Part shown: positions 2 to 16,591 of the stretch, one piece after another
Position numbering within the stretch: the first letter of the stretch is position 1
Layout: each line of letters begins with the position of its first letter
Assembly: GCA_048939245.1 (NCBI GenBank)
Contig: JBHLPR010000032.1
Location: 1 to 25,155 of the forward strand
DNA from: Promethearchaeota archaeon
Lineage (GTDB): Archaea; Asgardarchaeota; Hermodarchaeia; Hermodarchaeales; Hermodarchaeaceae
Reading direction: 5' to 3'
Length of the DNA stretch: 25,155 bases
Program-made: the position numbers and the translations under genes
Notes under the pieces: generated by a model
What the model was told of the DNA's origin: nothing
The model's input: the letters and a program-made list of their open reading frames with translations, nothing else
Databases searched by the model: none

Positions 2-1555
2 CCCACAGGGCTTTCTGGTTGGTATAATATTTCCCTTCCAAGTGATATCTTTGCCGTTGGTGTATACCAATTAACACTGAGTTGTGATCACGAAGGTTAT
101 CAATATACAATGACTTCAATCGGGTTAAATATCCAACCTTGTCAAACATCTTTGATAATTGATGAAATCACCACGGAATTAGAAGAAACTGGAATCATCA
201 TTCCACTAAATGGAACCGCTTGGGATGTCCCACGCGGAGACATCCTACGAATCTATTTTAATTTCACAGACACAGACGGTCGGGTGATTCTGAATGCAAC
301 CGGGTCCTATTCATGGCAATTGGGTAGTGGGGTACTTCAATTTAGGAATGGTCTCTATGTCGCCCAAATAAATCTCACCGATGTAACTCCTGGGCTCTAT
401 AGCCTTACCATTTCGCTAACACGTCAAAATTTCGAAACTGCTACTGCTCCATACTTACAGCTAAATGTGATTCACGTACCCACAGAAATCACTGGATTAT
501 CAGACACGATTACCATCTTTACTGGTGAAGCATTCAGTCTTCATGTAACATTTACAGATACCTACCATAACGTCATCATCACCGATGCCACCCTATATGT
601 CTCCATACCTAGTCTTGGATTAGATTTGCGACCAATGGTGAACAACGGAGATGGGACCTATTCTTTAGCTGGACTATCCGCTCTTGTTGAAGGAACATCT
701 TCTATTATTATCGAATCCTCTGCCGCACCGAAATACGCACACACACAAAGTACTGCCACGCTTATTGTGAGCCTCAGTCCAGTCACAAGAACAGCCATCC
801 AAGCTGGTGCACTTCTTGGAGTTATACTAGTTATCTCCCTACTTATCTGGTTGGCTTACGTAAGGGTTTACTCAATTCCATGGATTGTACGAAAAATGCG
901 GAAAATGAGTAAATCAATTGACCATGGTCAAATGCCCTCTCTTTCAAAGAACGAAATTAATCGGATTCCGAATCGCGACACTCAACTAGTTACAATGATG
1001 TCACCCTCTTATGAAGCTTCAAGTTTAACAATTCAACCCTATGTACTTCCCACAGCTGAACTCCCTACTGAAAGAAGATCTGAAGATGATGCCATATTAC
1101 TTGAATTGGAACAATTGGAGGGTTTAGGTGAGAATCAAAAAGAACAGCTGTTTGAACAAATGAAAAAGATTCCAGCCAAAGACCGGGTGTGGTTCATGGA
1201 GGACATGAAACGGCAAATGGCGGAAGGTCGGTTTGATTATCTAAAAACAGGGGATGCTGAAGTTGAAGAAGAAGCACCTGCTGAAGAGAGACCTGAGAAA
1301 CCTGGGTTGAGCCCTGTAGAACAAGCAACACTAGTTGCGGTACTGAGGGAAGGGCTCGAACAATTCACGGTAATAAGTGATGGAGATAAAGATGCCCTTG
1401 TCCAACAACTGATTATCATGACGCCCAAAGAACGGGAAGCGACAATTAAGAAATTAATGGCTCGGATGAAAGGTTTACAGCTTGAAGAACCTGAGCCTAA
1501 ACCAAAACTAAAGAAGCGAAAGAAGAAAGCCGATTTTGACACTAGTGATTCATAA
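2..1555 (+). CDS. C-terminal part of a large membrane-anchored surface protein (Ig-like beta-sandwich repeats, single TM helix, acidic helical cytoplasmic tail); 5'-truncated by the window edge
   Basis: The frame of the 110..1555 ORF is open back to base 2 (PTGLSGWYNISLPSDIFAVGVYQLTLSCDHEGYQYT-M). It has Thr-rich beta repeats with GxYxLT and NGDGTYSL motifs, a hydrophobic segment AGALLGVILVISLLIWLAYV followed by RKMRK (positive-inside), a charged tail and a TAA stop at 1553-1555. Confidence 0.8.
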   Translation, partial: PTGLSGWYNISLPSDIFAVGVYQLTLSCDHEGYQYTMTSIGLNIQPCQTSLIIDEITTELEETGIIIPLNGTAWDVPRGDILRIYFNFTDTDGRVILNATGSYSWQLGSGVLQFRNGLYVAQINLTDVTPGLYSLTISLTRQNFETATAPYLQLNVIHVPTEITGLSDTITIFTGEAFSLHVTFTDTYHNVIITDATLYVSIPSLGLDLRPMVNNGDGTYSLAGLSALVEGTSSIIIESSAAPKYAHTQSTATLIVSLSPVTRTAIQAGALLGVILVISLLIWLAYVRVYSIPWIVRKMRKMSKSIDHGQMPSLSKNEINRIPNRDTQLVTMMSPSYEASSLTIQPYVLPTAELPTERRSEDDAILLELEQLEGLGENQKEQLFEQMKKIPAKDRVWFMEDMKRQMAEGRFDYLKTGDAEVEEEAPAEERPEKPGLSPVEQATLVAVLREGLEQFTVISDGDKDALVQQLIIMTPKEREATIKKLMARMKGLQLEEPEPKPKLKKRKKKADFDTSDS

Positions 1556-1652
1556 TATCAACTTTCACTTGCTCTAAGTTTATCATACAATTCTTATGGA
1601 ACTGGCAAGACTTTTAATTTCTAAGTGTGCTAGGTGATTTTCAATCGAGGCG

Positions 1653-2033
1653 ATGGTTATGAAACAAATAGGAGAAGGTCTTATCACTCTCCAGAAATCA
1701 GCGCAGGGAACTCTTCGAATTATTTCTTCGATAGAAGATGTACTCAAATTGCTTAAAGACCTTAAAGCGGAGGAGGCATCGAATTCAGTTACTGAAACGT
1801 TGGTTCTCGTTGAGGATGCTGGCACAACAACCTTAGCTCCAATTCTTTCTCGTCTAAAGGGGGTGGTCTGTACTTCAGGAGCTTTAGGATCTCACCTTGC
1901 CATTGTAACCCGTGAATTTGGAATCCCCGCTCTCATGGGCACAAAAATAGATTATGCTGGCAAACTTGAATTGCAACAAGTCAAAATTGAGCCACGTGAT
2001 ACACCAAATGGTGTTCTACTTATTGATGAATAA
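1653..2033 (+). CDS. Stand-alone PEP-utilising enzyme mobile (phospho-histidine swivel) domain protein
   Basis: GVVCTSGALGSHLAIVTREFGIPALMG matches the swivel-domain signature (GGxTSHxAIxARExGIPxxxG). The His codon is at 1893-1895. An SD-like GAGGCG lies upstream, so the start may be ATG 1659. Confidence 0.85.
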   Translation: MVMKQIGEGLITLQKSAQGTLRIISSIEDVLKLLKDLKAEEASNSVTETLVLVEDAGTTTLAPILSRLKGVVCTSGALGSHLAIVTREFGIPALMGTKIDYAGKLELQQVKIEPRDTPNGVLLIDE

Positions 2034-2052
2034 TACCGATGCTTGCGGGAGA

Positions 2053-3060
2053 ATGAAGATGCCACCGTTTCCACCGAGAAAATTCGTTCCCTCGAATCTC
2101 CAGATTGAATTTCTTGATCGTGTGCCAACTAATCAACCAGAACTCTTCGGTGGAAAAGCTGTGAACCTGGCACGGCTTCACCAAATGGGAATTTCAATAC
2201 CCAAAGGATTTGCCCTCTCTACTCAGTGTTTTATTCAATTTCAGTCATCCTATCAAGATTTGGAATCCTATAAAACTCTCCATACTAAACTGACAGATTT
2301 TGAAACGCTTCTTCATTCTTCAGAGGAATTTCAAAACCAAGCAAAAGAATTTGAATTACCTGAGAGCGTCGCTAAAGAAATTATTACTAAATTCGAACAA
2401 CTCGAAAAAACCCATGAAGATGTCCATGCAGGCTATGCTGTTCGTTCCTCTGCTACAACCGAAGATGTCAATGAATTTTCCTTTGCAGGTCAAGCTGACA
2501 GCTTTCTTTGCGTAAAGGATCTCTCCGGTATCCTAGAAGCTGTAAAACGCACTTGGCTTTCTCTTAACTCAGCTAGAGCACTCATCTATTTGAAGAGCAA
2601 AAGCATCAACCCCCATCACGTGTATATGGGCGTGATTGTCCAAGAGATGGTGCTGGGTGAAGTATCAGGGACTATGTTCACCACGAACGTTGTCAATAAC
2701 AATCCTGATCAACTTATCATCGACTCTACCTGGGGGTTGGGCGAAAGCGTTGTTGCTGGTAAGGTAATCCCCGATTCATTTTTTCTCCAAAAAGCTCCGT
2801 TGAAAATCCTCAAGCGACACCTTGGTGAGAAAGCCCTCTATAGTGCTCCACATCCCGCTGATCGACCTGAATGTACCTTATTTTTAGAAACACCTCAAGA
2901 AAAACGGGAAATATTCTCGATTGCTGACGAAAAACTCTACGAGCTCGCACGGTTAGGTCTTCAAATCGAAACGGCAATGAATCTACCTCAAGACATCGAA
3001 TGGACATTAAAAGAGGATTCATTTATCATCCTTCAGACCCGACCAATAACCACATTCTAG
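2053..3060 (+). CDS. Stand-alone PEP/pyruvate-binding (PPDK_N, ATP-grasp) domain protein of the PEP synthase/dikinase family
   Basis: Motifs GGKAVNLARL, IPKGFAL, YAVRSSATTED..SFAGQ, VIVQEMV, SGTMFT, WGLGESVV, PQDIEW and ILQTRPITT. The protein ends exactly at the end of the ATP-grasp domain. Start moved from 1954 (which overlaps the upstream gene) to ATG 2053/2059 after GGGAG. Confidence 0.9.
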   Translation: MKMPPFPPRKFVPSNLQIEFLDRVPTNQPELFGGKAVNLARLHQMGISIPKGFALSTQCFIQFQSSYQDLESYKTLHTKLTDFETLLHSSEEFQNQAKEFELPESVAKEIITKFEQLEKTHEDVHAGYAVRSSATTEDVNEFSFAGQADSFLCVKDLSGILEAVKRTWLSLNSARALIYLKSKSINPHHVYMGVIVQEMVLGEVSGTMFTTNVVNNNPDQLIIDSTWGLGESVVAGKVIPDSFFLQKAPLKILKRHLGEKALYSAPHPADRPECTLFLETPQEKREIFSIADEKLYELARLGLQIETAMNLPQDIEWTLKEDSFIILQTRPITTF

Positions 3061-3242
3061 GCCTCTTTGTCATATTCTTCTCATTCAGCAGCTCTCAACA
3101 CTCTTCGAAACTTTCCGGTTTTCAACGAAGGAGATATATGGCATCTTTGAAAGAGTTATTTCAGGCTTGATTGAAGCTTGGGGAACGAAAGGTCAGCCAA
3201 GTCATATTCCCTTCCCCGACAAATTCGTAAAAGGTGATCTTA

Positions 3243-6200
3243 ATGCCTCCCGACGAGCAACCCGTACAAAAGACTCAGGATTCAGCGATTTTAGAACTGA
3301 TAGCAGAAGAATCCCCCCTAGGCATCATCGTTATCCAAGATGATCGGGTTCTCTTTGCAAATAAGGAACTTGCCCAACTCATTGGTTTTAGTCTGTCAAA
3401 TCTTCACAGGATGACGACGAATGATTTTATGCAATTTATTGCCGATGCTGATAAACTCGGAGCAAGCCAAAGGTTGAATTCAGCTGTTGGAGGTGAAATT
3501 AAGACAAAATTCTATGATGTTCGTGTAAAAGACAAGAAGGGAATGGAAAGGTGGCTTCAAATACTACCACGTGGAATCAAAATTCAGGATAAACCCGCAA
3601 TCCTTGCTATGGTCGCTGATATTACCAAACAAAAACATATTGCTCAGGCTCATCAGGACTTGGTTAACCATTCACTCCAAGGTCTTATCATCATCCAAGA
3701 TATGCACGTAGTCTTTTCTAATCAGGCATTTGCTGATATCAGTGGATATACAATTGAAGAACTCCTAAACCTTACTCCGGAAGAAGTCAAAGCTCGAGTG
3801 CACACCGATTATCAAAAACGGGTATGGGGTCGGATGCAAGATCGCCTTAAAGGCAAATCTGTTCCCTCTCATTATCAATTCAAAGCAATTCGCAAAGATG
3901 GATCTGAGCGTTGGTTAGAGATGTTTGTCACTGTAATTGAATATGAAGGGAAACCAGCAGTTCAAGCAACATTCCTAGATATCACCGAAAAACAAGAGGC
4001 TGATATTAAGCTTCAAGAATCCGAAGCCCGCTATCGCGGACTCTTTGATGAAATACCCGTTGGCCTTTATCGAACCAGCGCAGCAGGCGATATTGTCGAC
4101 GCAAATCCTGCAATTGTAAGATTACTTGGTGCAGAAGATAAAGAAACACTTCTAGAAATGAATGCGTCAGACTTTTATGTAGATCGTCATGAACGTGAAC
4201 GTTTTAAAGAAAAATTAGGCAAAGAAGGAATTGTTACAGGTCATGAGGTACAATTCAAACGTTTAGATGACAGAATTATTTGGGTCCGTGATACTTTCCG
4301 TGCAATTCGTGATGAAAAAGGGGTAATTCAATATTATGAAGGATCCTTAGAGGATACCACTGAACGGGTGAAGGCGGAAGAAGCCCTCAAAGAACGAGAG
4401 CGCCGATATCGTGCTCTATTTGAACGCACCAACGATGCTGTGTTTATTATTTCACTTGATTTGAAGCATCTGGATGTTAATCAGCGTGCTGCTGAATTAT
4501 TAGGCTATACCTTGGACGAGATGGTTGGGATGCCGGTTGAGCAGGTTGTTGGACAAGGTGAATATGAGGACAGTAGACGCGTCTTGAAATCGTTATTAGC
4601 AGGTGATCATGTTCCAGTCTATGAACGTATTTTCAGGAAAAAAACCGGAGAAGAATTTCCAGTAGAAATCAATGCTGCACTCGTTACCGATAATGAAGGC
4701 ATTCCAGTTCATATTCAAAGTGTAGCTCGAGATATTTCTGAAAGAAAACAAGCGGAACTTGCTTTGAAAGAAAGTGAAGAAAAATACCGAACGTTAGTGG
4801 AAACGTCCCCTGATGCTATAACAGTTACAGACTTAGAAGGCAAAGTCATCATGGTGAATCGTCAAGCTCTTCAACTGTACGGTGTTGGCAGTGAAAAGGA
4901 ATTGATTGGCGTTAATGCGTTTGAACTAATTTCTCCCGATGATGTTCCAATTGCTATGAAGAACATGCAAAAAACACTAGAGAAAGGGACCTCTGGAACT
5001 TTAGAGTATAACTTACTTCGACGAGATGGCACACCTTACCCAGCTGAACTTAATGCGACTCTCATGAAAGATACCGATGGGAACCCCACAGCATTCATCG
5101 GAGTCATTCGCGATATTAGTGAGCGAAAGGAAGCTGAAGCCCGATATCGTCAACTTTTTGATAGCGTTCCAGTTGGGCTTTTTAGAACAACACCGGATGG
5201 AACCATTCTTGATTCCAATCCCGCTCTAATTGAAATGTTGGGATTTGATGATAAAGAATCCCTTCTTAAACGGAAAGCATCCAGTTTCTATGTGGACCCT
5301 GCTGGCCGAAAACAATGGGAAACTGCCGTTGCCCGAGAAGATGTCGTTACTGGAGTTCTAGCTGAATTTCAAAGGGTGGATGAGGAAAGAATTTGGGTTG
5401 AATTAACCGCACGGGCAATTCGTGATAAAGAAGGGAAAGTGGTCTATTATGAAGGGACATTAGAGGATATCACTAATCGTAAAAGAAGTGAAGATGCAGT
5501 TCGAGAATCTGAAGCAAAATATCGGGCACTAATCGAACAATCTTTTCAAGGTATTATAATCATCCAAGATAATCAGATTGTGTTTGCGAATCCGCAAATG
5601 GAAGAAATTGTGGACATAACTCCAGAAGAACTTCTTAAGATGCCTCCCAACGCGTTTTGGGAACGAATTCACCCTGAAGATATTCAATGGATTCAAGACC
5701 GCTTTCGAGACCGCTTCGCTGGAAAGGAAGTACCAGATCGTTACGAAATTCGAGTACTTTCACCAGATGGTCGAATCCAGTGGATTGAAATTTGGGTCAA
5801 AATGATTGACTACCAAGGCGAAGCCGCAATACAGGTGACTTTATCCGATGTAACAGAGCGGAAACGAGCAGAGATGCTTATTCGCGAATCTGAGGAGAAG
5901 TATCGAACGCTTGTTGAGCAATCGCTCTTTGGAATAGTAATTTCTCGTGGTCCTCCACTTCGGATGTTCTTCGTTAATGAAGCATTCGCTGAAATGATCG
6001 GTTATACTGTCGAAGAAATTCTAGCCATGTCTCCGAGCAAAGTAAAAGAACTAATCCATCCGTCTGATCAGGATTTGGTTATTGGACGCGCTGAGGAACG
6101 ATTAGCTGGCAAAGCCGTTCCTGAAAAATATGAATACCGCATGGTGAAAAAAGATGGATCCATACTTTGGGTGGAAATCTTCGCGCATCGCATTGAATAT

Positions 6201-6674
6201 CAGGGAGAACCTGCGGTGCAAGCCGCCTACATCGATATCACTGAACGCAAGGAAGCTGAAGCCGCATTACAAGAATCTGAAGAACGGTTCCGGGCATTAG
6301 TAGAAGATCTTTCCGATTGGGTTTGGGAAATGGATCTCACCGGGAAATTCGTCTACACGAATAATGCCGTTGAGGATATAATCGGATTTTCTGCAGGACA
6401 AGTCTTGGGATGCACACCATGTGACTTTTTACGCCCTGATGATATCAGTCGGGCACAGGACACATGGAAAGAGCTCAAGGAAAGACGACGCCCTATCCGT
6501 ACAATTGTTATCCAGATGGTTCATCGGGATGAATCTGATGTAATCCTTGAAGCACGCGGTCGACCCATTTTCAACGAATCTGGTGAACTCCTAGGATTTC
6601 GGGGTGTCTGCCGAGATATCACTGACCGCATTAAAATGCTAGAACAACTACGCGAACTCGATGATCGACTTTAG
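3243..6674 (+). CDS. Soluble multi-PAS protein (9 tandem PAS/PAC domains) with no recognisable output domain
   Basis: Nine units end in DITKQK/DITEKQ/DTTERV/DISERK/DISERK/DITNRK/DVTERK/DITERK/DITDRI, most joined by ESExxYRxL linkers. No TM helix and no HisKA/HATPase/REC/GGDEF after the last PAS. SD GGTGA at 3233-3237 favours ATG 3243. Confidence 0.9.
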   Translation: MPPDEQPVQKTQDSAILELIAEESPLGIIVIQDDRVLFANKELAQLIGFSLSNLHRMTTNDFMQFIADADKLGASQRLNSAVGGEIKTKFYDVRVKDKKGMERWLQILPRGIKIQDKPAILAMVADITKQKHIAQAHQDLVNHSLQGLIIIQDMHVVFSNQAFADISGYTIEELLNLTPEEVKARVHTDYQKRVWGRMQDRLKGKSVPSHYQFKAIRKDGSERWLEMFVTVIEYEGKPAVQATFLDITEKQEADIKLQESEARYRGLFDEIPVGLYRTSAAGDIVDANPAIVRLLGAEDKETLLEMNASDFYVDRHERERFKEKLGKEGIVTGHEVQFKRLDDRIIWVRDTFRAIRDEKGVIQYYEGSLEDTTERVKAEEALKERERRYRALFERTNDAVFIISLDLKHLDVNQRAAELLGYTLDEMVGMPVEQVVGQGEYEDSRRVLKSLLAGDHVPVYERIFRKKTGEEFPVEINAALVTDNEGIPVHIQSVARDISERKQAELALKESEEKYRTLVETSPDAITVTDLEGKVIMVNRQALQLYGVGSEKELIGVNAFELISPDDVPIAMKNMQKTLEKGTSGTLEYNLLRRDGTPYPAELNATLMKDTDGNPTAFIGVIRDISERKEAEARYRQLFDSVPVGLFRTTPDGTILDSNPALIEMLGFDDKESLLKRKASSFYVDPAGRKQWETAVAREDVVTGVLAEFQRVDEERIWVELTARAIRDKEGKVVYYEGTLEDITNRKRSEDAVRESEAKYRALIEQSFQGIIIIQDNQIVFANPQMEEIVDITPEELLKMPPNAFWERIHPEDIQWIQDRFRDRFAGKEVPDRYEIRVLSPDGRIQWIEIWVKMIDYQGEAAIQVTLSDVTERKRAEMLIRESEEKYRTLVEQSLFGIVISRGPPLRMFFVNEAFAEMIGYTVEEILAMSPSKVKELIHPSDQDLVIGRAEERLAGKAVPEKYEYRMVKKDGSILWVEIFAHRIEYQGEPAVQAAYIDITERKEAEAALQESEERFRALVEDLSDWVWEMDLTGKFVYTNNAVEDIIGFSAGQVLGCTPCDFLRPDDISRAQDTWKELKERRRPIRTIVIQMVHRDESDVILEARGRPIFNESGELLGFRGVCRDITDRIKMLEQLRELDDRL

Positions 6675-6746
6675 CTTCAAAGCTGGTCGCACTAGAATCC
6701 TTAAATGCAACATCCAGGCATCCTATCTCCCAAGAGATGTGATGCT

Positions 6747-7916
6747 ATGATTGGAGATCTTAGCACCAACAAAGCAAACACCTTCCTTCACCGAGCTAGC
6801 GCCGCTAGCACATACCTTCTCTCCCAACGAACCGCCCTTGAATCCAAACTTTTCCCCGTTACAGCATATAATAGTGTAGCCTGTGCTCAAATCTATCGCG
6901 ATTACCAGTATAATATCTTCACAGAACTCGCCAAACATGTCTCTCCAGAGGAGATTGGTCAACGCTGTCGAACCTTGGCCGCTTATCCAAACGTCTTAGG
7001 CGTTTGGGCATTTATTGGTCTCTGGGGACTCGGACGCATGCAAGACCTCTATGATGCTGGTGGAGCAGAACATGAACAACCCGAACGCCGGAAACAAGCC
7101 AGATTTATGATTGATTTCTGGTATCGCATGGCCACCAGCTATTATGATAGCGACAAACCCCTTGCTGCTGAAAATAATGATACGGCCTGTGTGCTTCCTG
7201 AGAATATTCTCGAAATGGTCAAACAAGAGCTCCAACCATTAGATAACGACCAGCGGATGCAACTCAAACGTACCATGGCGCAGCTTTACCTTGCTGAGTT
7301 TCTCTCATATTGTGAGTGTCGAGCTAGTATCCATGAAATGGGACCATACCCTTTTAGTAAAAACGAGTATCTCATCTTCCGAGAATTCTCACCTCTCTAT
7401 GATGGTTCCCGGCTTATCTGGGACTGGCACGATACGAAAGCAACATCTCCGGTCCCCAATCTATCCGTTGCCTTAGTCGTGAAGGATATGGACGAACTCG
7501 TCTTTACTGATTTTGCTACGCTCTTTCCAAAACCAGAAGATTACTCTGACCATATCACCCAATTTGCGCTCTTCACCCGTTTCGACGACAAAATCGAAAC
7601 TACTCCCTTTTCAGTTCTCAACGATCTAGAGCAGTTTGCTACCGATGTCCAAACCGAACTTTACCTCGAATTCGCTGAATGGGATGATGTTAAACGACTC
7701 AAAGCTGGCTCATCAGTCTTCCTAAAATGGTTCTACATCTTCACTGACATGGGCAACATCACTGATAAAATCACCATGGGTTTAGACGAAGACAAGGTTG
7801 GTGATTATATCCAACTCATGCTCAAATCTATGGGGCATCCTGCGTGGGCTCGACTCTTTCGCAGCACAGCCGAATGTGAAAAAGATCCCACCTTCTACGA
7901 ACTTCTCGACGAATAG
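6747..7916 (+). CDS. Uncharacterised protein, candidate substrate-binding subunit of the split PEP-dikinase
   Basis: Long ORF (389 aa from ATG 6747; 403 aa from 6705). Motifs RTALESKLFPVTAY, DFWYR, GPYP and TDFATLFPKPEDY resemble a hypothetical family I recall next to stand-alone PEP-mobile domains in Actinobacteria (recollection, unverified). Confidence 0.6.
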   Translation: MIGDLSTNKANTFLHRASAASTYLLSQRTALESKLFPVTAYNSVACAQIYRDYQYNIFTELAKHVSPEEIGQRCRTLAAYPNVLGVWAFIGLWGLGRMQDLYDAGGAEHEQPERRKQARFMIDFWYRMATSYYDSDKPLAAENNDTACVLPENILEMVKQELQPLDNDQRMQLKRTMAQLYLAEFLSYCECRASIHEMGPYPFSKNEYLIFREFSPLYDGSRLIWDWHDTKATSPVPNLSVALVVKDMDELVFTDFATLFPKPEDYSDHITQFALFTRFDDKIETTPFSVLNDLEQFATDVQTELYLEFAEWDDVKRLKAGSSVFLKWFYIFTDMGNITDKITMGLDEDKVGDYIQLMLKSMGHPAWARLFRSTAECEKDPTFYELLDE

Positions 7917-7928
7917 GTGCACTCCATC

Positions 7929-8831
7929 ATGTCAAGTGAAGTCTCCAAATCCGACGAACAGTTCCATGAACCTACCAACGATCCAGACTGGAAGGAATCC
8001 TACTACTTCCAATTATACAACCCTGAAACTAAATTGGCCGCTTTCTTCTACATCTCCGCTTATCCTAACATTCCCAAACGCGATTATCTCGTTGCTTTCC
8101 TTCATGATGGTCAAACCGATATCTATCTTAATACACTTCCAACCTCCGGAAAACTTGACAAATTGGAAGATGGGAAACTCCGATTCGAGCTCATCAAACC
8201 CCATGACCAATGGAAAATCCATTTCGACGATGGAAAAAGGTTTACAAATCTCAAATTTACCGGACGCTTCGAGTCCTTCGCCTATGATCCCAAACAAGCA
8301 TACAAGAAGGGTATTCTAGAACAAGAGCACTACGAACAAGGCTGTTTCGTCAATGGAACGATTAGATTAGCTGATGGCACCGAACACCAACTCAGCTGTT
8401 TTGGACATCGAGACCACTCCTGGGGACTTCGTGATTATGCCGCCATCGATGAATGGAACTGGATTGCTGTTCAATTTTCTTGGTGCACTATCAACCTCCT
8501 CAAACTGCATATTGGCAAAAAACATGAAACAGCGGGTTTCCTGTCAAGCCTTATCGGTAACCAACACCTCACTGATATCACATTCACAACCCATTTCGAA
8601 TCGGATGGTCTAACCCCTCAAGGTTTCACCGTCCAGTTCACAGACGAAGGAAAGAAACAATGGCACCTCGAATCAACGAAACTCCAAACCATGGTCTACC
8701 CACCACGACAAGCTAAGGCTGGATATGAAACCCATATCTATGAAATAGTCTCACAATTCACCCTTAAAGGCGATCCCAGTTTTGGATATGGAATATCAGA
8801 GTACCTAATTAGCCGAAAAACATCGAAATAA
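7929..8831 (+). CDS. AttH/CrtC/tocopherol-cyclase-like double beta-barrel protein (DUF7064/DUF7065-like)
   Basis: Motifs HEP..DPDWKESYYF, EHYEQ, G(T)I and GHRDHSWGLRDY...WNW; beta-rich sequence. SD AGGTG at 7915-7919 precedes ATG 7929. Confidence 0.65.
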   Translation: MSSEVSKSDEQFHEPTNDPDWKESYYFQLYNPETKLAAFFYISAYPNIPKRDYLVAFLHDGQTDIYLNTLPTSGKLDKLEDGKLRFELIKPHDQWKIHFDDGKRFTNLKFTGRFESFAYDPKQAYKKGILEQEHYEQGCFVNGTIRLADGTEHQLSCFGHRDHSWGLRDYAAIDEWNWIAVQFSWCTINLLKLHIGKKHETAGFLSSLIGNQHLTDITFTTHFESDGLTPQGFTVQFTDEGKKQWHLESTKLQTMVYPPRQAKAGYETHIYEIVSQFTLKGDPSFGYGISEYLISRKTSK

Positions 8832-8846
8832 CCGGATGCCCTCTCT

Positions 8847-9296
8847 ATGCTTAATTTTAGCTACCTAATCCCTGGGGTTCTCGCTGGTTCCAGCCTACCT
8901 CGTGGACGCAAAGACCTTGAGCACCTCGTTACTGAAGGCATCAAAGTACTTGTCACCGCTATGGAAGATACTCTTAATACGGCGCTCGTTGAAGAAGTGG
9001 GGCTTGAATACCATTACTTTCCGATCCTTCCTTATGGCACACCATCACTAAAACAAATCAACGAATTCGTCGACTTAGTCAATACGAATCGTGCGAAGAA
9101 TCGACCGATCGCAATTCATTGTTACATGGGTTGGGGTAGAACTGGAACTTTACTTGCCGCATATCTGATTAGTGAAGGCATGGGGACGGATGAGGCTATT
9201 GCAGAAGTACGCGATAAGCGTCCTGGGTCTATTGAAACTTTTGGACAAGAGCAAATTCTTCACATGTTTGAGCAAAGCTTGGTCCATCGAAAATAA
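8847..9296 (+). CDS. Dual-specificity protein phosphatase family (Cys-based PTP fold)
   Basis: Active-site loop IHCYMGWGRTGT (HCxxGxGRT), N-terminal LAGSSLP and C-terminal AIAEVRDKRPGSIETFGQ. Confidence 0.92.
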   Translation: MLNFSYLIPGVLAGSSLPRGRKDLEHLVTEGIKVLVTAMEDTLNTALVEEVGLEYHYFPILPYGTPSLKQINEFVDLVNTNRAKNRPIAIHCYMGWGRTGTLLAAYLISEGMGTDEAIAEVRDKRPGSIETFGQEQILHMFEQSLVHRK

Positions 9297-9311
9297 CGAG
9301 GCTCCTCTGAT

Positions 9312-10310
9312 TCAATGCTGATGACTATGCCCATTTGGGTCTGTCGATGGAACGAAACATGCCTGTTCATAATAAGGCTCAACAGCAAGACATTCGACCT
9401 GAATCGTAGTATGTTCAATCCCGTGTTCTTCACAAAGAAACTTATTCACTGAATCGATAAGGTTTCGAGTAGCACTTACTGAGCAATCCTCCGATATATT
9501 CAGATGCATGGACAAACAATAAATTCCTGAGGTAAGTTCCCAAAGATGTACATCATGAACATGATGAATTTCTGGGAAACGAACTTTGATTTCTTTCTCG
9601 AGTTCATCAATATCATAGCCCTGAGGTGCTGACTGAAGGAGAATTGCTGTCGTTGTGCGTATGAGTTGAATTCCCCACATAAGGATGATTATCGCGATGA
9701 AGAAGCTTACAATCGGATCAATGAATACCCAGCCTGTGAACAAAATAAGGAGCGCAGCAATGATTACTCCGATTGAGGAGAAAGTATCACTGATTACATG
9801 AAGGAAGGCACCCTTGACATTATGATCCCCTTGACTGCTTCCTTGAAGTAGAACCATCGTTGCGAGATTCACAAGAAATCCCAGGATAGCAACAAGAAGG
9901 AGTTCCAGAGCTGCCACTGGTACCGGGTTAATCAAACGTTGGATGGCTTCAAGGAGAATAAAAATACTGACTATGATAACAAAAATGGCGTTAAACAAAC
10001 CTCCAAGGATTTCAACCCGGTAATAACCAAAGGTATACCGTCGAGGTGCTGAACGAGTAGCGATAATGATCGCTGCTAATGCAATTAGGAGAGCAAGAAA
10101 GTGGGAAAGCATGTGCCCAGCATCACTAATTATGGCAAGGCTTCCGGTGAGTATACCGCCGATTAACTCAACCCCCATCATAGAACCCGTTAAAAAGAGT
10201 CCCAGTAGAAGCCGCTGTCTAGCGATTCTCCGATATACGCGGGAATCACCTTCTCGGTGTTCAAAATGATGTCCATGTCCAGGCGGGGGTCGCATCTCTT
10301 CAGTTTCCAT
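9312..10310 (-). CDS. Cation diffusion facilitator (CDF) metal efflux transporter
   Basis: SLAIISDAGHMLSH, YTFGYYRVEILG, NVKGAFLHVISD, VHDVHLWEL and GIEHTTIQVE; about six TM segments; His-rich N- and C-termini. Start taken at METEEM (10310). Confidence 0.92.
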   Translation of the reverse strand: METEEMRPPPGHGHHFEHREGDSRVYRRIARQRLLLGLFLTGSMMGVELIGGILTGSLAIISDAGHMLSHFLALLIALAAIIIATRSAPRRYTFGYYRVEILGGLFNAIFVIIVSIFILLEAIQRLINPVPVAALELLLVAILGFLVNLATMVLLQGSSQGDHNVKGAFLHVISDTFSSIGVIIAALLILFTGWVFIDPIVSFFIAIIILMWGIQLIRTTTAILLQSAPQGYDIDELEKEIKVRFPEIHHVHDVHLWELTSGIYCLSMHLNISEDCSVSATRNLIDSVNKFLCEEHGIEHTTIQVECLAVEPYYEQACFVPSTDPNGHSHQH

Positions 10311-10422
10311 AATACTACACAGTATCTTTCGTGAAGAATGCAAAAGGTGTCTTTTTACCATTCCTCATTAACTGTTCATCTACTCGGTACTTTGAATCAG
10401 AGATGAGAAAATGAAAGAATTG

Positions 10423-11835
10423 TTAATCTTCCTTCCACTTCCCTTCGCCGATATACTGGCTAATACCACTGGAATCCTTTGGTCCCACTTTAACAGTCCA
10501 CTTACTTGCCTCTTCCGTTTCACCACTAAGGCGGGCTGCCATACCCGGACTGATTAGAATACGATGTTTTACTTTATTCTCGATTCCCGATTCTTTGATG
10601 GCTTCAGCAACCCCATCGGCTGTTAATTTCCGTCCTGCAACAGCGGATTGAATGCTGAGCCCCTCTGTATCCACTACCAGAAGATAGGCATCAATTCCTG
10701 CCTGTTTAATGTCACTTTCCACTGTGAAATAGGTCAGAGCAAAATTCGATGTATACATTACAGGTGAGTCCTCGTTTGGCGAACCGAATTCGCGCAATCC
10801 CGCTTCAACGGCAACTGGTTTCACTGGATCCGTATAGAGGTTGGTTCGAAGAAATGTGAGCGGTAATGTAACCCACATGTCTAAGCTGTGTAGCACCAGG
10901 ATGTCAGCATAGCGGATGATTGTAGATGCACCTGCAAGGGTTTCTTGCCATTTGGCCAGTTCTTCTGCTTCGCCTTCTTTATGATCTCCCCAGACTGAGA
11001 TGGGCGAGGCTAATAATGGAAAACCAACTCCTTCATCGCCTTCGCGTGTTGCGGCTCGACGAAGCATGGTGAAATCGTCAACAGTAGCGCCAAGTGCGGC
11101 TCCAAATTCATTCCCCGGATCGAGAACCACGTCGATACCCATTTGACTCAAGGTCGTAGCCAGGGATTTGAGTGTATCTAACTCGCCTGGAGCATAAACT
11201 ACTAACGGGCATTGGTGGGTCAACGCCACGTCAGAGAGTACCTGCCAGGTGTCTTTCGTTGCGGCATACAGTAATGGACGTTTGCCTTGAAGGGCTTCGG
11301 CACCTGCAGCTAAGACTTGGGGGTTAAGTGAACAGAGCATAATTGGCCAATGGGTCAACTCGCCTAGCCGTTTTGCTGCGCTTGCGAATTTTTTTGGGTC
11401 GCCCGATACAGAGCGTAAGGCAATGCCGTCGAGTGTAAGCTCCATACCTATGTACCTATATGTCCATTCTTCGATAGCTTTCACGCGTTTCTTCATTTCT
11501 TCAGCAGATGCAGTATCTGCTACATCCACAAAGAATGCAGTAGGGTGCAGATATCGAAGGTCATGGCGGTACAGAACTAGCTCTCCCCCAATCAAGACCT
11601 TCTTCTCCCCCATACCAATTTGAACCTCTCTTACTGGAGGTCGCATGAGTTCTTCGAGTTTTTCGCGCTTGTTAGCATATTGTCTTTCCCGATACAATGG
11701 GGTACACGCTTTGATGCCGATTGTGTATTCTGCGGCCTTGGTGGCAAAGGCCATACAATTTGCTTCACCGCATTCACCACAATTAGTCTGGGGGAGCAGC
11801 GGATAGATATCCATTGGTCCTGCACGTTTCGCCAT
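10423..11835 (-). CDS. cdhE: Acetyl-CoA decarbonylase/synthase complex gamma subunit (corrinoid Fe-S protein large subunit)
   Basis: N-terminal 4Fe-4S motif LPQTNCGECGEANCMAFA..C (C-x2-C-x4-C-x16-C), IGGELVLYRH, LYTDPVKP, SNFALTYFTVESD, DTEGLSIQSAVAGRKL and VKVGPKDSS. SD GAGGTG upstream. Confidence 0.95.
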   Translation of the reverse strand: MAKRAGPMDIYPLLPQTNCGECGEANCMAFATKAAEYTIGIKACTPLYRERQYANKREKLEELMRPPVREVQIGMGEKKVLIGGELVLYRHDLRYLHPTAFFVDVADTASAEEMKKRVKAIEEWTYRYIGMELTLDGIALRSVSGDPKKFASAAKRLGELTHWPIMLCSLNPQVLAAGAEALQGKRPLLYAATKDTWQVLSDVALTHQCPLVVYAPGELDTLKSLATTLSQMGIDVVLDPGNEFGAALGATVDDFTMLRRAATREGDEGVGFPLLASPISVWGDHKEGEAEELAKWQETLAGASTIIRYADILVLHSLDMWVTLPLTFLRTNLYTDPVKPVAVEAGLREFGSPNEDSPVMYTSNFALTYFTVESDIKQAGIDAYLLVVDTEGLSIQSAVAGRKLTADGVAEAIKESGIENKVKHRILISPGMAARLSGETEEASKWTVKVGPKDSSGISQYIGEGKWKED

Positions 11836-11990
11836 AAGAACACCTCATGTATTCTAAGTAGGCATCAGATATGCCGAGTTTAGATAATTAGCTTTTTTGC
11901 ATCAGTCAGTACAAATGTACTTCTAGCTGTTGATACTTCCCACAACAGCCATATTCTAGATGAAATAGACCGCATTCCCCGCCAATTTTT

Positions 11991-12015
11991 TTACAGATCT
12001 ATAAAGCATCTGTAA
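11991..12015. repeat. Perfect 8-bp inverted repeat TTACAGAT-N9-ATCTGTAA in the intergenic region upstream of cdhE
   Basis: Read directly from the sequence (11991-11998 / 12008-12015); function unknown. Confidence 0.6.
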
Positions 12016-12160
12016 CCGCCGAATAGCGAGGGAAGCTCGTAATCATTCTCATTGATTGAAGTGAAACAATTCAAGATATTCTGCGTTTTGATAAATAGGT
12101 ACAAAACTACTATAGTATTTGAGCCTATGTTGTTTATTATCAGATTTTGAAGATTATTTT

Positions 12161-12844
12161 TTAATCCGCTATTGCCAAAACTACTATGTATTCTATAGGT
12201 AGAAAAAATAAGACGTGTATAAAGGAGAAAGTAGTGAGACAAACAAAGATTCGTAGAAATAATTGTGCTTGAGAGAGAGTCCCCTTAAACGCATTGAATC
12301 CGAAACTACCGAGTATGGATATGACCAGATTTATGGCGAATCGGAATGCTAATGAGATAAGAAGCCATTGCTGCATTATCGGCTGGTTACTCATAAACTG
12401 CTCATAAAGCTGAAATTCTTCTGGTCCAGGTAGGGTGATATGAGGGTGAAAGGGAATCGTAAGAGCTTCTATCGCGACGATGATCATTCCGCCCATGAAC
12501 GCGTATCCCAAGGGGGAAGCGATTTTCTTCCATGACGGCAAGTCGTATGCTACTTTAAACAACTGGCTGATCAACGACCAACCCCCCAGTAAAAGGAATA
12601 ATCCGATAATCGTTCTCTCGAGAATGGTCCTGTTAAGCATAATTTGAATCCACACTCCATATCGGCCAAGCAAGGTAAAATAGGTCGTCGAACTAACCAC
12701 AAACACTATGGCATTCACGAGGTAGAAGCTAATTATTGCAGCAACTGCTCCGATTAGATCTAAATGTTCAGCAATCTCTTGAAAGATATTGCGGGGTCGT
12801 AGAAGAGCCCCAACCATTCGCAAAGGTATTTTCTTTTTCTCCAA
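12161..12844 (-). CDS. YIP1-like multi-pass membrane protein
   Basis: N-terminal GALLRPRNIFQEIAE pattern typical of YIP1 families, then about 5 TM segments and a LGYA motif. Start moved to TTG 12844 (GGGGG upstream) because a TATA box lies inside the longer ORF call. Confidence 0.55.
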   Translation of the reverse strand: MEKKKIPLRMVGALLRPRNIFQEIAEHLDLIGAVAAIISFYLVNAIVFVVSSTTYFTLLGRYGVWIQIMLNRTILERTIIGLFLLLGGWSLISQLFKVAYDLPSWKKIASPLGYAFMGGMIIVAIEALTIPFHPHITLPGPEEFQLYEQFMSNQPIMQQWLLISLAFRFAINLVISILGSFGFNAFKGTLSQAQLFLRIFVCLTTFSFIHVLFFLPIEYIVVLAIAD

Positions 12845-12873
12845 TAAAATTCCCCCGTGTTCTTTTTGCCTAG

Positions 12874-12890
12874 CGTTATATATAAAACTT
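12874..12890 (-). promoter_or_regulatory. Putative archaeal TATA-box promoter of the YIP1-like gene
   Basis: The minus strand reads AAGTTTTATATATAACG about 35 nt upstream of the proposed TTG start. Confidence 0.5.
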
Positions 12891-13087
12891 ACTGAATTTA
12901 CGTTTAATACAGTGAATTTATTATTCGCACAAGCCATTTAGGAATATTCACTGATCGATAAACAACTATTAGTCCTCAATATCTGATAGCTATCACTCGA
13001 ATTTGAAATTTTTTTGCAAATGTAATAGAATTTGCTTTTGCACTCTTTCATAGTGAAATGAAAAAAGACGAATTTTTAGTAGACTTT

Positions 13088-13855
13088 CTACTGTATGAAC
13101 TGCTCTTGAATGATACGTTCTTCGAGTGAATGCCCTTCATCGAATAGGACCTTAACAAATTGAGACCGATCTTCTTGCACATGAACCGAAATGGGGTATT
13201 TCACTTCATCAAAGTCCGCTGAAACGGAGACCGGTCGATTTTTCGGATTTAATATTTCGAAATCCACTTTCGCCGTTTGGGGGAGTAAAGCCCCGTTCCA
13301 ACGTCGGGGACGGAAGGGATTAAGGGGAGTCAACGCCAAAACATTCGATCCAATGGGGATAATTGGGCCTCGAGCTGAGAGATTATACGCTGTACTACCA
13401 GCAGGCGTAGCGACAAGAATACCATCGCAAATGAGATTTTCTAGCCGAACCTTGCCATTAATTGAAATGCGGATATGCGCAGATTGTTGGGCTTGTCGTA
13501 TAATCGCAACTTCATTAAATCCAATCGCTTCGTATTTTTTCTTATCTGCTGTCTGAGCCGTCATTCTTAATGGATAGATTTGCTCTTCCTTCGCCACTTG
13601 AATTCGAGCAAGAAGCCCTTCTTCTTGGTATTTGTTCAACAGGAACCCGATGGTTCCCCGATTCATGCCATAGATTCGGACATCTTGATTGACAAATTTA
13701 TGGAAACAGCGAAGCATGAACCCATCACCCCCAAGTGCAACAACGATTTCAGCTTCTTTCACTGGAACGAAATCATATCGCGTTTTCAATACTTTATACG
13801 CCTCGAGGGCTCGGGGCGTGTCAGAATGAATGCAAGCAATCTGCTGCGAGGACAT
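13088..13855 (-). CDS. nadK: NAD kinase
   Basis: VALGGDGFML, YGMNRGTIGFL, NEV, CDGILVATPAGSTAYNLSARGP and LALTP. Probable start MSSQQ at 13855. Confidence 0.95.
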   Translation of the reverse strand: MSSQQIACIHSDTPRALEAYKVLKTRYDFVPVKEAEIVVALGGDGFMLRCFHKFVNQDVRIYGMNRGTIGFLLNKYQEEGLLARIQVAKEEQIYPLRMTAQTADKKKYEAIGFNEVAIIRQAQQSAHIRISINGKVRLENLICDGILVATPAGSTAYNLSARGPIIPIGSNVLALTPLNPFRPRRWNGALLPQTAKVDFEILNPKNRPVSVSADFDEVKYPISVHVQEDRSQFVKVLFDEGHSLEERIIQEQFIQ

Positions 13856-14001
13856 CGTGATTCCCAATATTGTCTGTAGTTTGAAGATAATAGACTTGCC
13901 AACCATAAAGGTTGCTCATGAATGGCAATAGAGAGATAACATAAAATCTTTGAGTTCTCACAGAATTATACAACTCCTAGTAAAATCCTGACGTGAAATG
14001 T

Positions 14002-15156
14002 ATGGTGCCAGAAATCACGCAAAGTCAAGTAAATGGTTTCAGGATGGAGAGGCATTTCTTAACACAGCGGGGTTCACGATCAGATATCACGTCTGTAGTG
14101 GAAAGAGTGTGTGGAATCCAGGCTCAGATGCCAGCTGCAGCCAATCTTCAACTTTGGGCTAGAATCCATAATCTCAAGAATGAGGATGTGAATAAAGAGC
14201 TTTGGACTAAGAAAACACTACTTCGGACTTGGTGTATGCGCGGGACCGCTCATTACCTTACCTTGAAAGACTTTCCTGCTTTTCTAAAAGCAATTATTAT
14301 GCCACGTATCCCACGACATAAAGAGTGGCTCACAAAACGCGGATTGAAAGAATTCGGTGAAATCGCAAAAATCGACCCCTTTCAACACGACTTCGAAGCC
14401 ATTCTCACTACTATCTCAAAAGCCCTAGCCGCTGGTCCCGCAACACGAGAGGAAGTAGCAACGGTTGTTGCTGACGAGATTGGCCCGGAAGCTCGCCGAT
14501 GGGTGGATACAGGATACTATATTGTCACCAAGCTCCTCGCCTATGAAGGTACGGTTTGCTTTGGTCCTGACTTGAATGGCAAAGCAACATTAGTCTTAAC
14601 AAGTCAATGGCTTCCCAAACAACCTACGATAAATCAGCAAGAAGCTGAAGACACAATTCTTATGAAATACTTTCAATGCTATGGACCTGCGACCCCGCAA
14701 GATTTCTCAGCTTGGTCCGGTCTCAAGATGCAAACGATCAATCCAATCTGGGCGCGAAACCTCTCGCAATTCGCTGAAGTTGCTCTCGATAAAAAATCAC
14801 TCTGGATTTTGAAAGAGGACTATGAGGCACTACTTAACACTCAAACTGATTCACGACCTCTTCGACTTCTCCCACATTTTGATGTTTTTTTGCTTGGTCA
14901 CAAAGATAAGTATCACATCGTCGATGAAGCTCATTACAAGCAGGTGTTTAGGAAAGCAGCTTGGATTTCCCCTGTCCTGCTCTATGAGGGACGAGCTATT
15001 GGAACATGGAAACAGAAGCGCACTAGCAACAAAATCAATGTCGTAGTAGAACCTTTTGAGTCACTCACGAAATCACAAATCGAAAACATTGAGGCTGAGG
15101 CTCTACGATTAGGAGAATATTTTGATCTAATAGCTGAAGTGAAGGGAATTTCATGA
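14002..15156 (+). CDS. AlkZ-family (HTH_42 winged-helix) DNA glycosylase
   Basis: Catalytic QxQ motif (CGIQAQ), RTWCMRGTAH, YGPATPQDFSAWSGL, RLLPHFDVFLLGHKD and GRAIGTWK. Confidence 0.88.
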   Translation: MVPEITQSQVNGFRMERHFLTQRGSRSDITSVVERVCGIQAQMPAAANLQLWARIHNLKNEDVNKELWTKKTLLRTWCMRGTAHYLTLKDFPAFLKAIIMPRIPRHKEWLTKRGLKEFGEIAKIDPFQHDFEAILTTISKALAAGPATREEVATVVADEIGPEARRWVDTGYYIVTKLLAYEGTVCFGPDLNGKATLVLTSQWLPKQPTINQQEAEDTILMKYFQCYGPATPQDFSAWSGLKMQTINPIWARNLSQFAEVALDKKSLWILKEDYEALLNTQTDSRPLRLLPHFDVFLLGHKDKYHIVDEAHYKQVFRKAAWISPVLLYEGRAIGTWKQKRTSNKINVVVEPFESLTKSQIENIEAEALRLGEYFDLIAEVKGIS

Positions 15157-15551
15157 AACCTTTTGATGAGTTCAGTTATCGGATTCGAGTTCGCCGTGGT
15201 GAATTATGGGAAAGAAAAGCCTACCTTGACTTCTTCATGAAGACATAGTGTCTTTTACCGATGATTGAATGGCATGCTCGCGTCACTCACGATCAAGACT
15301 ACGACACTTGGTTCGGTGGACGCTTCCTTGAACGATGCTTGGATCTCCGCATTATTACCGAACTCCGGAGTGCTTTTACACATTATGAAGAAGAGGATGT
15401 TTGGTACGCTCTTAGTATTACTATGCAACTTTTTCGTTGGATCGCCAAAGAAGTCTCAGAGAAATTAGATTACAGTTATCCTAAAGACGCTGATCAGTTC
15501 GCTAGCCGATGGGTTGATGCAGCCTATTGGGATCGGGAGCTGAATGATTAG
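15153..15551 (+). pseudogene. Truncated aminoglycoside 6-adenylyltransferase (AadK/ANT(6)-like) C-terminal domain with an in-frame TAG
   Basis: In-frame translation MKPFDEFSYRIRVRRGELWERKAYLDFFMKT*CLLPMIEWHAR...YDTWFGGRFLE...LFRWIAKEVSEKLDYSYP. The family motifs RRGELW and MIEWH flank the TAG at 15246-15248. The N-terminal nucleotidyltransferase domain is absent. Confidence 0.75.
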
Positions 15552-16591
15552 AAGCGTCGTGGCTTCTTCGGATAGGCTTGGAAAGGGGTTCTGGGTTCTA
15601 AACTTAACCAGTCGGTTTTCTGATCCAATCGTGATAGGGACCGGAGTAAATCAAATGTCACCCAGCGTGATACTTCAGGGTGCTGTTGATATTCCCAAAG
15701 GCCATAAGGTCCTTGTAAATCCTTGACAAACTTCACGATATCTGCAATACGGGCATCTTCGAGATTTGCTTCAATCCGCCAAGACAAATCCAATATCTGC
15801 CCTACATCATATCTCTTGAAATATGTGAAGCCACCACGTGGCGGTTCCGCTCCCACAATTCGTGCTACTTCAAAGCCAAGTGTATGAGCTTGTCGTTGTT
15901 CTTGAGCAAGGAGTTTATCTAACCCCCGCTGTGCTGATTCACTAGTCCGACGGGTTGGATGTAAGGCCAATGCACTCACGGCTGCAGTGGTGTTAGTTCG
16001 ACACCCGAATTTTGAATGGGGGAGTCGTCGATAACCCGCTGAAAAAATGAATTCTTCTTTATGACGCCCCGATGGCCACCCTCCATCTGGAAGCTCCTCG
16101 CGAAGCAGCCATTCATACGCTGCTTCAGCCCGCCTATCTGTTGCATAGCCAGCCCAAGCTAAACCTAATAATGGCAAAGCTGTTTGGAGCGGCATGGCAT
16201 GGTATTTAACATCAGCTGCCTTTCCTCCATCTAGAACAGCGCCTTGGGTAATCAATGGAAAGGCACCATCAGCTTCTTGCTGAGCAAAGAGATATTCAGC
16301 CCCCTTCATTACCGAGGGTGATTCGGGACCTAATCCAAAATAGCCCAATCCCATGAGTGCTTGAGCCGTCATTCGGATTCGACCCAGGATAGCCCCTCCC
16401 CCTTCTCCACTTCTGAATGACCCATCCTTTTCCTGCAATGCAAGAAACTTCTCAACCATAGGATCTGCGGATTGGAGCTTTTTCAGTTCTTGGATTTCCT
16501 CATCGGAATCAGGGCGGTTTAAGAGGTCGCGTAGTACTAGCAGGCGAAGACTTGGCGATGGATCAGCAAGTAGTAACGGAATCCATGTCAT
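15548..16591 (-). CDS. Prenyltransferase/squalene-oxidase repeat (alpha/alpha toroid) protein
   Basis: QW-like repeats LQEKDGSF, QQEADGAF, ELPDGGW and LQGPYGLW; C-terminal SRWVT. No DxDD cyclase motif. ATGA overlap with the UvrA-like gene. Confidence 0.7.
   Translation of the reverse strand: MTWIPLLLADPSPSLRLLVLRDLLNRPDSDEEIQELKKLQSADPMVEKFLALQEKDGSFRSGEGGGAILGRIRMTAQALMGLGYFGLGPESPSVMKGAEYLFAQQEADGAFPLITQGAVLDGGKAADVKYHAMPLQTALPLLGLAWAGYATDRRAEAAYEWLLREELPDGGWPSGRHKEEFIFSAGYRRLPHSKFGCRTNTTAAVSALALHPTRRTSESAQRGLDKLLAQEQRQAHTLGFEVARIVGAEPPRGGFTYFKRYDVGQILDLSWRIEANLEDARIADIVKFVKDLQGPYGLWEYQQHPEVSRWVTFDLLRSLSRLDQKTDWLSLEPRTPFQAYPKKPRRF

Follow-up and report, generated by a model that had tools for sequence, protein, structure and literature searches.

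What does a dikinase of the phosphoenolpyruvate (PEP) synthase type phosphorylate when its ATP-grasp and phospho-histidine swivel are separate proteins and no pyruvate-binding barrel is encoded beside them? The question is raised by a locus on contig JBHLPR010000032.1 of the Promethearchaeota archaeon assembly GCA_048939245.1, an 88%-complete, Hermodarchaeota-like Asgard genome. The stretch considered, positions 1 to 25,155 of the forward strand (in nucleotides, nt), is hereafter called the window. Six plus-strand genes span positions 1653 to 9296. The first-pass annotation of the window named five of them, all correctly placed on the plus strand, and left out the PAS gene at 3243-6674. The six genes are as follows.

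1653..2033, plus strand: stand-alone phospho-histidine swivel, 126 aa (PF00391, E value 7e-10; His81 codon at 1893-1895)
2053..3060, plus strand: stand-alone PPDK_N ATP-grasp, 335 aa, likely the ATP-dependent charger of His81 (PF01326, E value 7e-77)
3243..6674, plus strand: nine-PAS protein without an output domain, 1143 aa, a lineage-specific insert that is possibly regulatory (8-9 PAS domains)
6747..7916, plus strand: 389-aa orphan of an unnamed family, proposed as the acceptor-site subunit that docks the swivel (co-folding, fusions, linkage)
7917..8831, plus strand: DUF7065/DUF7064 beta-barrel, 304 aa, proposed as a phosphate-eliminating C-O lyase (Pfam, NCBIfam, kinship with 25-phosphosteroid lyase)
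8847..9296, plus strand: DUSP23-like Cys phosphatase, 149 aa, with a CX5R loop, C92 and R98 (PF22784, PF00782 and related families)

We slightly favor the reading that this gene set uses a split dikinase and a lyase to dehydrate, at the expense of ATP, a hindered alcohol that is probably isoprenoid-like.

The last three genes nearly abut, as first described, with 0 nt between orphan and barrel and 15 nt between barrel and phosphatase. The swivel and ATP-grasp genes sit ~3.7 kb upstream of these three because the PAS gene intervenes. No pyruvate/PEP-binding TIM barrel (PF02896) was found in the window, which agrees with the first-pass annotation. That annotation had also reasoned that a stand-alone pyruvate barrel elsewhere in the genome would restore ordinary PEP synthase activity and so contradict it. 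The sole PF02896 copy lies inside a full-length 911-aa PPDK on contig C41, and the 88%-complete genome therefore has no stand-alone PEP/pyruvate barrel. The window swivel and ATP-grasp are the genome's only stand-alone copies of either. APH domains were absent from the nine genes scanned in the window (110-11835). The 481-aa open reading frame (ORF) directly upstream of the swivel (110-1555, plus strand) has no Pfam or NCBIfam match, and the gene at this place varies between related loci (PfkB in locus L002).

Both dikinase parts are well-defined members of their families. The swivel scores 38.7 bits against PF00391 (cut-off, 23.1) and carries a GSH motif with His81; this residue, C73, G76, R87 and E88 are invariant across 47 swivel orthologues. 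The ATP-grasp gene begins 19 nt past the swivel stop, and its start is best set at ATG 2053, which gives 335 aa, compared with 333-340 aa for its orthologues. Its product scores 259 bits against PF01326 (cut-off, 27) and resembles the N-terminal portions of the PEP synthase, rifampin phosphotransferase (RPH) and PigC models, with E values of 3e-63 (RPH) and 3e-58 (PigC). The swivel/ATP-grasp gene pair recurs in L002, L027, L031-L033, L036-L038 and L048.

The 389-aa orphan has no match in Pfam or NCBIfam. A sequence-profile search of the PDB gave nothing usable (best E value, 1), and a feature-based search of a protein atlas gave no match. Its start at ATG 6747 is backed by homologues of 388-390 aa. 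A profile search of 1.84 billion cluster representatives assigned 650 clusters (defined at 50% identity) to the orphan family at an E value of 1e-3 or better. Homologues were found in the Hermod, Thor, Frey, Jord, Loki and Atabey lineages of Asgard archaea (33-96% identity) and in Acidimicrobiia (24-30% identity), and the core module of swivel, orphan and barrel is present in more than 200 archaeal and actinobacterial species. A literature search turned up no publication on this module.

Gene order was surveyed in 80 loci from distinct species, covering Asgard lineages and Acidimicrobiia, which were scanned with hidden Markov models built for this analysis. A swivel gene lies beside the orphan gene in 76 loci, the contigs of the remaining four being cut off, and a DUF7065/DUF7064 gene is next after the orphan in 75. 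The usual order is swivel, orphan, barrel, with median gaps between matched domains of 26 and 53 nt, and stop/start overlaps within the module are seen in Acidimicrobiia. In five cluster representatives (P0061, P0109, P0125, P0155 and P0200), the two are naturally fused, with the swivel N-terminal to the orphan domain. The linkage of the 389-aa family to dikinase parts, on which the first-pass annotation had staked its proposal, was thus recovered. Its expectation that both stand-alone parts would co-occur with the family held near-universally for the swivel; for PPDK_N it was limited to the Hermod clade, Atabeyarchaeia and a single bacterial cluster.

Is the PAS protein part of this system? 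It is also found in L002 and L027, where, as throughout the window's clade, the PAS gene always comes next after the ATP-grasp gene. The PAS gene is absent from L037, where swivel, ATP-grasp, orphan and lyase form an unbroken series; only 137 nt separate the end of the ATP-grasp from the orphan, too short for a PAS gene. Given this spacing and the direct adjacency of swivel and orphan in every non-Hermod lineage, we do not count the PAS protein among the core parts; its gene is an insert specific to the clade.

The same gene orders bear on whether the window holds one system or two unrelated neighboring units, in which the swivel, ATP-grasp and PAS protein would form a signaling or regulatory phosphorelay and the orphan, lyase and phosphatase a separate operon. 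The layout of the window lends itself to such a division, as the 3.4-kb PAS gene stands between the two groups with flanking gaps of 183 nt and 72 nt, is the constant companion of the ATP-grasp in this clade, and is joined in L026 by a further 5 kb of unrelated genes. Beyond the window's clade, however, swivel and orphan are immediate neighbors (Frey/Jord, Loki, Atabey and Acidimicrobiia loci) or parts of a single fused protein, and the contiguous genes of L037 leave no such division. The window swivel, the only free one in its genome, is also predicted to dock on the window orphan, as described below. We consider a chance neighborhood of two units improbable.

The source genome encodes a second, divergent orphan-lyase pair at the end of contig C70 (L019:728-1888 and L019:1-816, both minus strand). 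No swivel gene lies near this pair; upstream of it is a 207-aa ORF without a family. A maximum-likelihood tree (midpoint root only, Acidimicrobiia rows thinned to one in three, duplicate loci omitted) separates bacterial from Asgard sequences (support, 100/99) and divides the latter into two clades. Clade A comprises Hermod, including the window, and one Frey/Jord copy; clade B comprises the second Frey/Jord copy, Loki, Atabey and the C70 copy. The duplication is therefore old within Asgard archaea.

We modeled the orphan to look for a fold that sequence searches could have overlooked. Its AlphaFold (AF2) model has a predicted local distance difference test (pLDDT) of 92.9 and a predicted TM-score (pTM) of 0.92, and shows a central antiparallel sheet, preceded by an N-terminal helical bundle and followed by C-terminal helices. 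Foldseek returned nothing usable from the PDB (best E value, 0.12), the best Z score in a VIA-align search of 48,161 representative chains was 2.9, and the ESM Atlas, searched by shape, gave TM values of 0.27 or less. None of the matches in these searches was an ATP-grasp, a PEP barrel or a rifampin phosphotransferase. The fold may be new, although an absent match is no proof of it.

Co-folding of the window swivel and orphan, each with its own alignment, gave ipSAE values of 0.84, 0.84 and 0.82, compared with 0.00 for all three controls. The runs had at least 88% of contacts in common, and the partner pLDDT was 91. In the calibration of the tool, 58 of 80 solved complexes and two of 110 mismatched pairs came up to the same mark, figures that are approximate here since alignments made for this analysis were used. 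Recall of a known complex is unlikely because no orphan relative or related complex has been solved. The predicted interface includes swivel His81 and the DAGTT loop. On the orphan side, 16 of the 32 interface residues are invariant or nearly so, compared with 4.3 expected (p = 1.4e-7), and among these 16 are the residues of the conserved docking patch, R28, E32, S33, R175, R192, D265, Q302 and Y306. These predictions support, without proving, that the swivel binds the orphan, and the swivel-orphan part of the complex proposed in the first-pass annotation was accordingly recovered in silico with His81 in its interface.

The barrel gene product belongs to the Rv3169 family and consists of DUF7065 and DUF7064 domains; its score of 70.9 bits against the NCBIfam model Rv3169_fam is under that model's cut-off of 150. 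It carries the motif HRDHSWGLR, in which R-D-x-S-W-G-x-R is invariant among homologues. The barrel alone (P0002) matched 25-phosphosteroid lyase (25-PSL; PDB 9FZN) with an E value of 1.1e-5 over residues 14-174, with H-x-R-D-x-S-W-G-x-R aligned. A profile of module-linked barrel homologues, which takes in one close bacterial homologue (from L028), matched the same entry with an E value of 7.9e-21. The AF2 model (pLDDT, 92.1) had 25-PSL chains as its top five Foldseek matches (TMq 0.74-0.77, E values of about 1e-15). The best single match was 9G4C, a 25-PSL with bound phosphate and product (TMq 0.77, E value 6e-16). Fungal Diels-Alderases, AttH and kievitone hydratase ranked below these chains, so that the earlier description of an AttH/CrtC-like barrel was right at the level of the fold. 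By sequence comparison and modeling, then, the nearest characterized relative of the barrel is 25-PSL, which eliminates phosphate from a tertiary phosphoester. By analogy, we propose that the barrel is a phosphate-eliminating C-O lyase, and the elimination of a phospho-intermediate suggested in the first-pass annotation has its precedent in this relative.

In Sterolibacterium denitrificans, 25-hydroxysteroid kinase (25-HSK) and 25-PSL together dehydrate a tertiary alcohol at the expense of ATP, the hydroxyl being phosphorylated and the phosphate then eliminated (PMC8449060, PMC11061730). The 25-HSK step is freely reversible, the tertiary phosphoester being as energy-rich as ATP (PMC8449060).

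The phosphatase matches DUSP23 (PDB 4ERC) with an E value of 1e-25, and its HCX5R loop is intact (HCYMGWGR, residues 91-98). Its residues 61-63 (window 9027-9035) read ILP where human DUSP23 aligns IPD, the Asp of which we take to be the general acid. Judged from this alignment, the window enzyme may lack a general acid, which could suit a substrate with a good leaving group. Only within the Hermod clade (L026, L027, L031-L033, L035, L036 and L038) is the gene kept immediately downstream of the lyase, and in bacterial locus L028 a member of another PTP family (Y_phosphatase3) follows the swivel-orphan fusion. A functional link of the phosphatase to the module is plausible. The first-pass annotation, which made it a part of the system, was right about the presence of an intact enzyme; the gene itself is clade-specific.

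A DUSP-type enzyme could also be a protein phosphatase, and membership of that family is one reason to ask whether the substrate is a protein or peptide, with Ser/Thr phosphorylated and then beta-eliminated as by class III/IV lanthipeptide synthetases. Kinase-plus-lyase logic is common to LanKC/LanL enzymes (PMC10604976). The relatives of the lyase (25-PSL, AttH, kievitone hydratase and the Diels-Alderases), however, all bind small hydrophobic molecules; no conserved precursor-peptide, cyclase or protease genes occur near the module in the loci examined; and the bacterial contexts, with P450, ADH, ALDH and ECH genes, are catabolic. A peptide substrate seems to us highly improbable.

In the dehydration system that we favor, the PPDK_N ATP-grasp would use ATP to phosphorylate His81 of the free swivel, with ATP converted to AMP and Pi or pyrophosphate (PPi) if the stoichiometry follows family precedent. 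The phospho-swivel would then dock on the Arg/Glu/Asp patch of the orphan, which would stand where a pyruvate TIM barrel or a rifampin-binding domain would otherwise be. There, a hydrophobic substrate would receive the phosphoryl group on a hydroxyl of low reactivity, and the 25-PSL-like barrel would remove the phosphate to leave an alkene; the likeliest substrate would be an isoprenoid- or steroid-like alcohol whose hydroxyl is tertiary or hindered. The DUSP-like phosphatase would probably clear dead-end phosphoesters or reset the phospho-carrier, and the PAS protein would be an add-on of one clade. What the analysis shows is the identity of the domains, the conserved order of the genes, the fusions, the predicted docking and the kinship with 25-PSL; the direction in which the phosphoryl group flows, the acceptor role of the orphan, the chemistry and the class of substrate are inferred.

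The central assignment in this scheme is that of the orphan as the acceptor site. We favor it because the genome has two orphan-lyase pairs (window and C70) and only one swivel and one stand-alone ATP-grasp; because a dedicated PPDK_N occurs in three independent settings, namely the Hermod clade, Atabeyarchaeia (L048) and bacterial L028; and because swivel, ATP-grasp, orphan and lyase are contiguous in L037. In L028, a PPDK_N-swivel protein is encoded beside a swivel-orphan fusion.

The roles could also be reversed, with the orphan being a new phosphoryl-donor domain that would charge the swivel from ATP, PEP, PPi or some other donor, and the barrel being the site of both acceptance and elimination; the triad would then be self-sufficient and the Hermod ATP-grasp a later addition. 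The predicted docking site is Arg-rich, like nucleotide and PEP sites, and an H+-pyrophosphatase is found beside the module in two unrelated settings. No PPDK_N lies near the triad in about 90% of loci, for example in Acidimicrobiia, Frey, Jord and Loki, and the complete Freyarchaeia chromosome (G003) has a single PPDK_N, within a full-length PEP synthase of 823 aa. Stand-alone PPDK_N genes elsewhere in module-bearing genomes were searched for and not found in G003, G005 and G007. On the other side, the orphan lacks a nucleotide-binding motif, and its fold searches matched no kinase, ATP-grasp or PEP barrel; where PPDK_N is present, it pairs with the swivel and would make an orphan donor redundant; and duplication has affected orphan and lyase as a pair but not the swivel, the pattern that substrate-specific parts would show. 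We regard the reversed roles as unlikely, though as the most serious of the alternatives.

Genomes G001 and G006 do have PPDK_N proteins of 419-453 aa; that of G001, a fusion with a cyclic-nucleotide-binding domain, adjoins a swivel protein of its own and looks like part of a separate system. In that Acidimicrobiia genome, L021:1063-3686 (minus strand) encodes first a 455-aa protein with a C-terminal swivel and then the PPDK_N-cyclic-nucleotide-binding fusion (419 aa).

Several observations weigh against the dehydration reading and have kept our preference for it slight. The scarcity of nearby ATP-grasp genes and the lone, embedded PPDK_N of the Freyarchaeia chromosome count here as well; in lineages without a dedicated ATP-grasp, either a housekeeping enzyme would charge the swivel or the orphan would be the donor site. 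In the window, the PAS gene splits the set, with swivel and ATP-grasp on one side and orphan, lyase and phosphatase on the other, and the intervening genes of L026 widen the distance. The barrel fold is also home to hydratases and Diels-Alderases. APH-type kinases, of the 25-HSK family, are encoded in bacterial clusters (L028 and that of P0056), including clusters that have swivel-orphan fusions; such kinases could supply the substrate of the lyase, in which case the swivel-orphan pair would have another role.

Taken together, the observation behind the first-pass annotation, stand-alone dikinase parts next to an orphan, is confirmed, and its overall interpretation is supported. The three findings that it had named as contrary to its idea (no linkage of the 389-aa family to dikinase parts, a stand-alone pyruvate barrel elsewhere in the genome, no complex) did not appear. 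By linkage and predicted docking the 389-aa protein is a partner of the swivel, and it may be the missing acceptor subunit that the annotation made of it; most lineages lack a dedicated ATP-grasp, which leaves room for a donor role.

Gene neighborhoods offer hints about the substrate. Bacterial neighbors of the module include P450, ADH, ALDH, APH kinases, an SCP2-like protein, ECH, HMGL-like proteins and biotin carboxylase, as well as a close 25-PSL homologue (E value, 1e-34). As judged from these gene families, the bacterial contexts point to hydrophobic or branched substrates. The cluster at L028:1-13211 encodes a ferredoxin, the PPDK_N-swivel protein, P450, ALDH, ADH, an APH kinase, the swivel-orphan fusion, the PTP phosphatase, a second APH kinase and the close 25-PSL homologue, and has the look of a lipid or sterol side-chain pathway. 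In Frey, Jord and Atabey loci, B12-binding radical-SAM genes flank the module in up to five copies (L004:4652-6250 and 11238-18078; L010:1687-3294 and 7799-9406; L048:48-1667), and a link to isoprenoid lipid modification is possible. A membrane H+-pyrophosphatase gene adjoins the module in Asgard L002 (11507-13576) and in an unrelated bacterial locus (L029:9842-12151; L030:4911-7220). The arrangement may point to PPi as a product or donor, or may be chance.

Some bacterial orphans are longer than that of the window. The C-terminal extensions of the long forms P0056, P0074 and P0155 were tested as fused lyases, and this was rejected. The extensions of P0056 and P0155 (P0074 was left out of this comparison) resemble a separate 195-aa protein, P0203 (L007:7018-7605, minus strand), which has a winged-helix-like N-terminus and a SYHxxWMxLHEDLL motif. 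In 12 of 61 Actinomycetota/Acidimicrobiia genome loci, and additionally in L006-L008, a P0203-type gene precedes the module in divergent orientation; in other bacteria a P0203-type domain is fused at the orphan C-terminus (P0155:552-794 and P0056:398-728). P0203-type proteins are absent from the Asgard loci. A 191-aa gene that lies between lyase and swivel in Frey loci was considered as a relative and rejected; it encodes a repeated membrane protein with no kinship to P0203.

Phosphorylation followed by elimination is a rare route for the dehydration of unreactive alcohols, known from anaerobic sterol degradation (PMC8449060). Going by established dikinase chemistry, an unfavorable phosphorylation would become irreversible if a dikinase paid for it with two anhydride bonds. 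We extend the argument, tentatively and with less confidence than we place in the dehydration reading for the window, to the family as a whole. The orphans would be an unrecognized partner of the swivel with a new fold and would constitute a further acceptor class; together with the 25-PSL-like lyase they would form an ancient, widespread dikinase-driven dehydratase, by which Asgard archaea and Acidimicrobiia strip tertiary hydroxyls from isoprenoid- or sterol-like compounds without oxygen. If this is true, it would add a new enzyme family and fold, and a new acceptor module for the superfamily of PEP-utilizing enzymes. It would also assign a role to a conserved set of Asgard genes, often found near B12-radical-SAM genes, and may bear on archaeal isoprenoid lipid remodeling or on anaerobic breakdown of terpenoids and sterols.

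How does the proposed system compare with known ones? PEP synthase and PPDK are built from ATP-grasp and swivel domains of the same families, the swivel bearing the catalytic His in a G-x-x-S/T-H motif; they carry the PEP/pyruvate TIM barrel, whereas the window has none and encodes its parts in separate genes. In RPH and PigC/RedH, ATP-grasp and swivel have likewise been retargeted to a non-pyruvate acceptor by a different third domain. These, however, are single polypeptides of about 865-880 aa with no elimination step, whereas the window parts are separate genes. RPH and PigC were not among the fold-search matches of the orphan, an absence that does not prove a different fold.

Phenylphosphate synthase of Thauera aromatica is a multi-subunit dikinase that is likewise split, ATP being bound by a subunit of its own that has homology to the N-terminus of PEP synthase. 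By way of phospho-His, the enzyme phosphorylates a poor nucleophile and converts ATP to AMP and Pi. Its His domain sits in a larger PEP-synthase-related subunit, whereas the window swivel is a free 126-aa protein whose partner, the orphan, has no similarity to any dikinase domain.

The 25-HSK/25-PSL pair of S. denitrificans (PDB 9FZN, 9G2I and 9G4C) follows the same two-step logic as that proposed here, in which a tertiary hydroxyl is phosphorylated and the phosphate then eliminated. 25-PSL and the window barrel are kin in sequence and fold and have the RDxSWGxR motif in common, although the window protein is shorter (304 aa, compared with 362 aa) and identity in structural alignments is 17-18%. 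25-HSK is a single APH-type enzyme that converts ATP to ADP; in its place, the window has a swivel, an ATP-grasp and a protein of unrecognized fold. No lyase candidate gene is reported near the 25-HSK kinase gene (PMC8449060), whereas the window module is tightly linked to its lyase. The system proposed for the window would thus join two known logics, the split dikinase and kinase-lyase dehydration, through an uncharacterized protein family without a recognizable fold.

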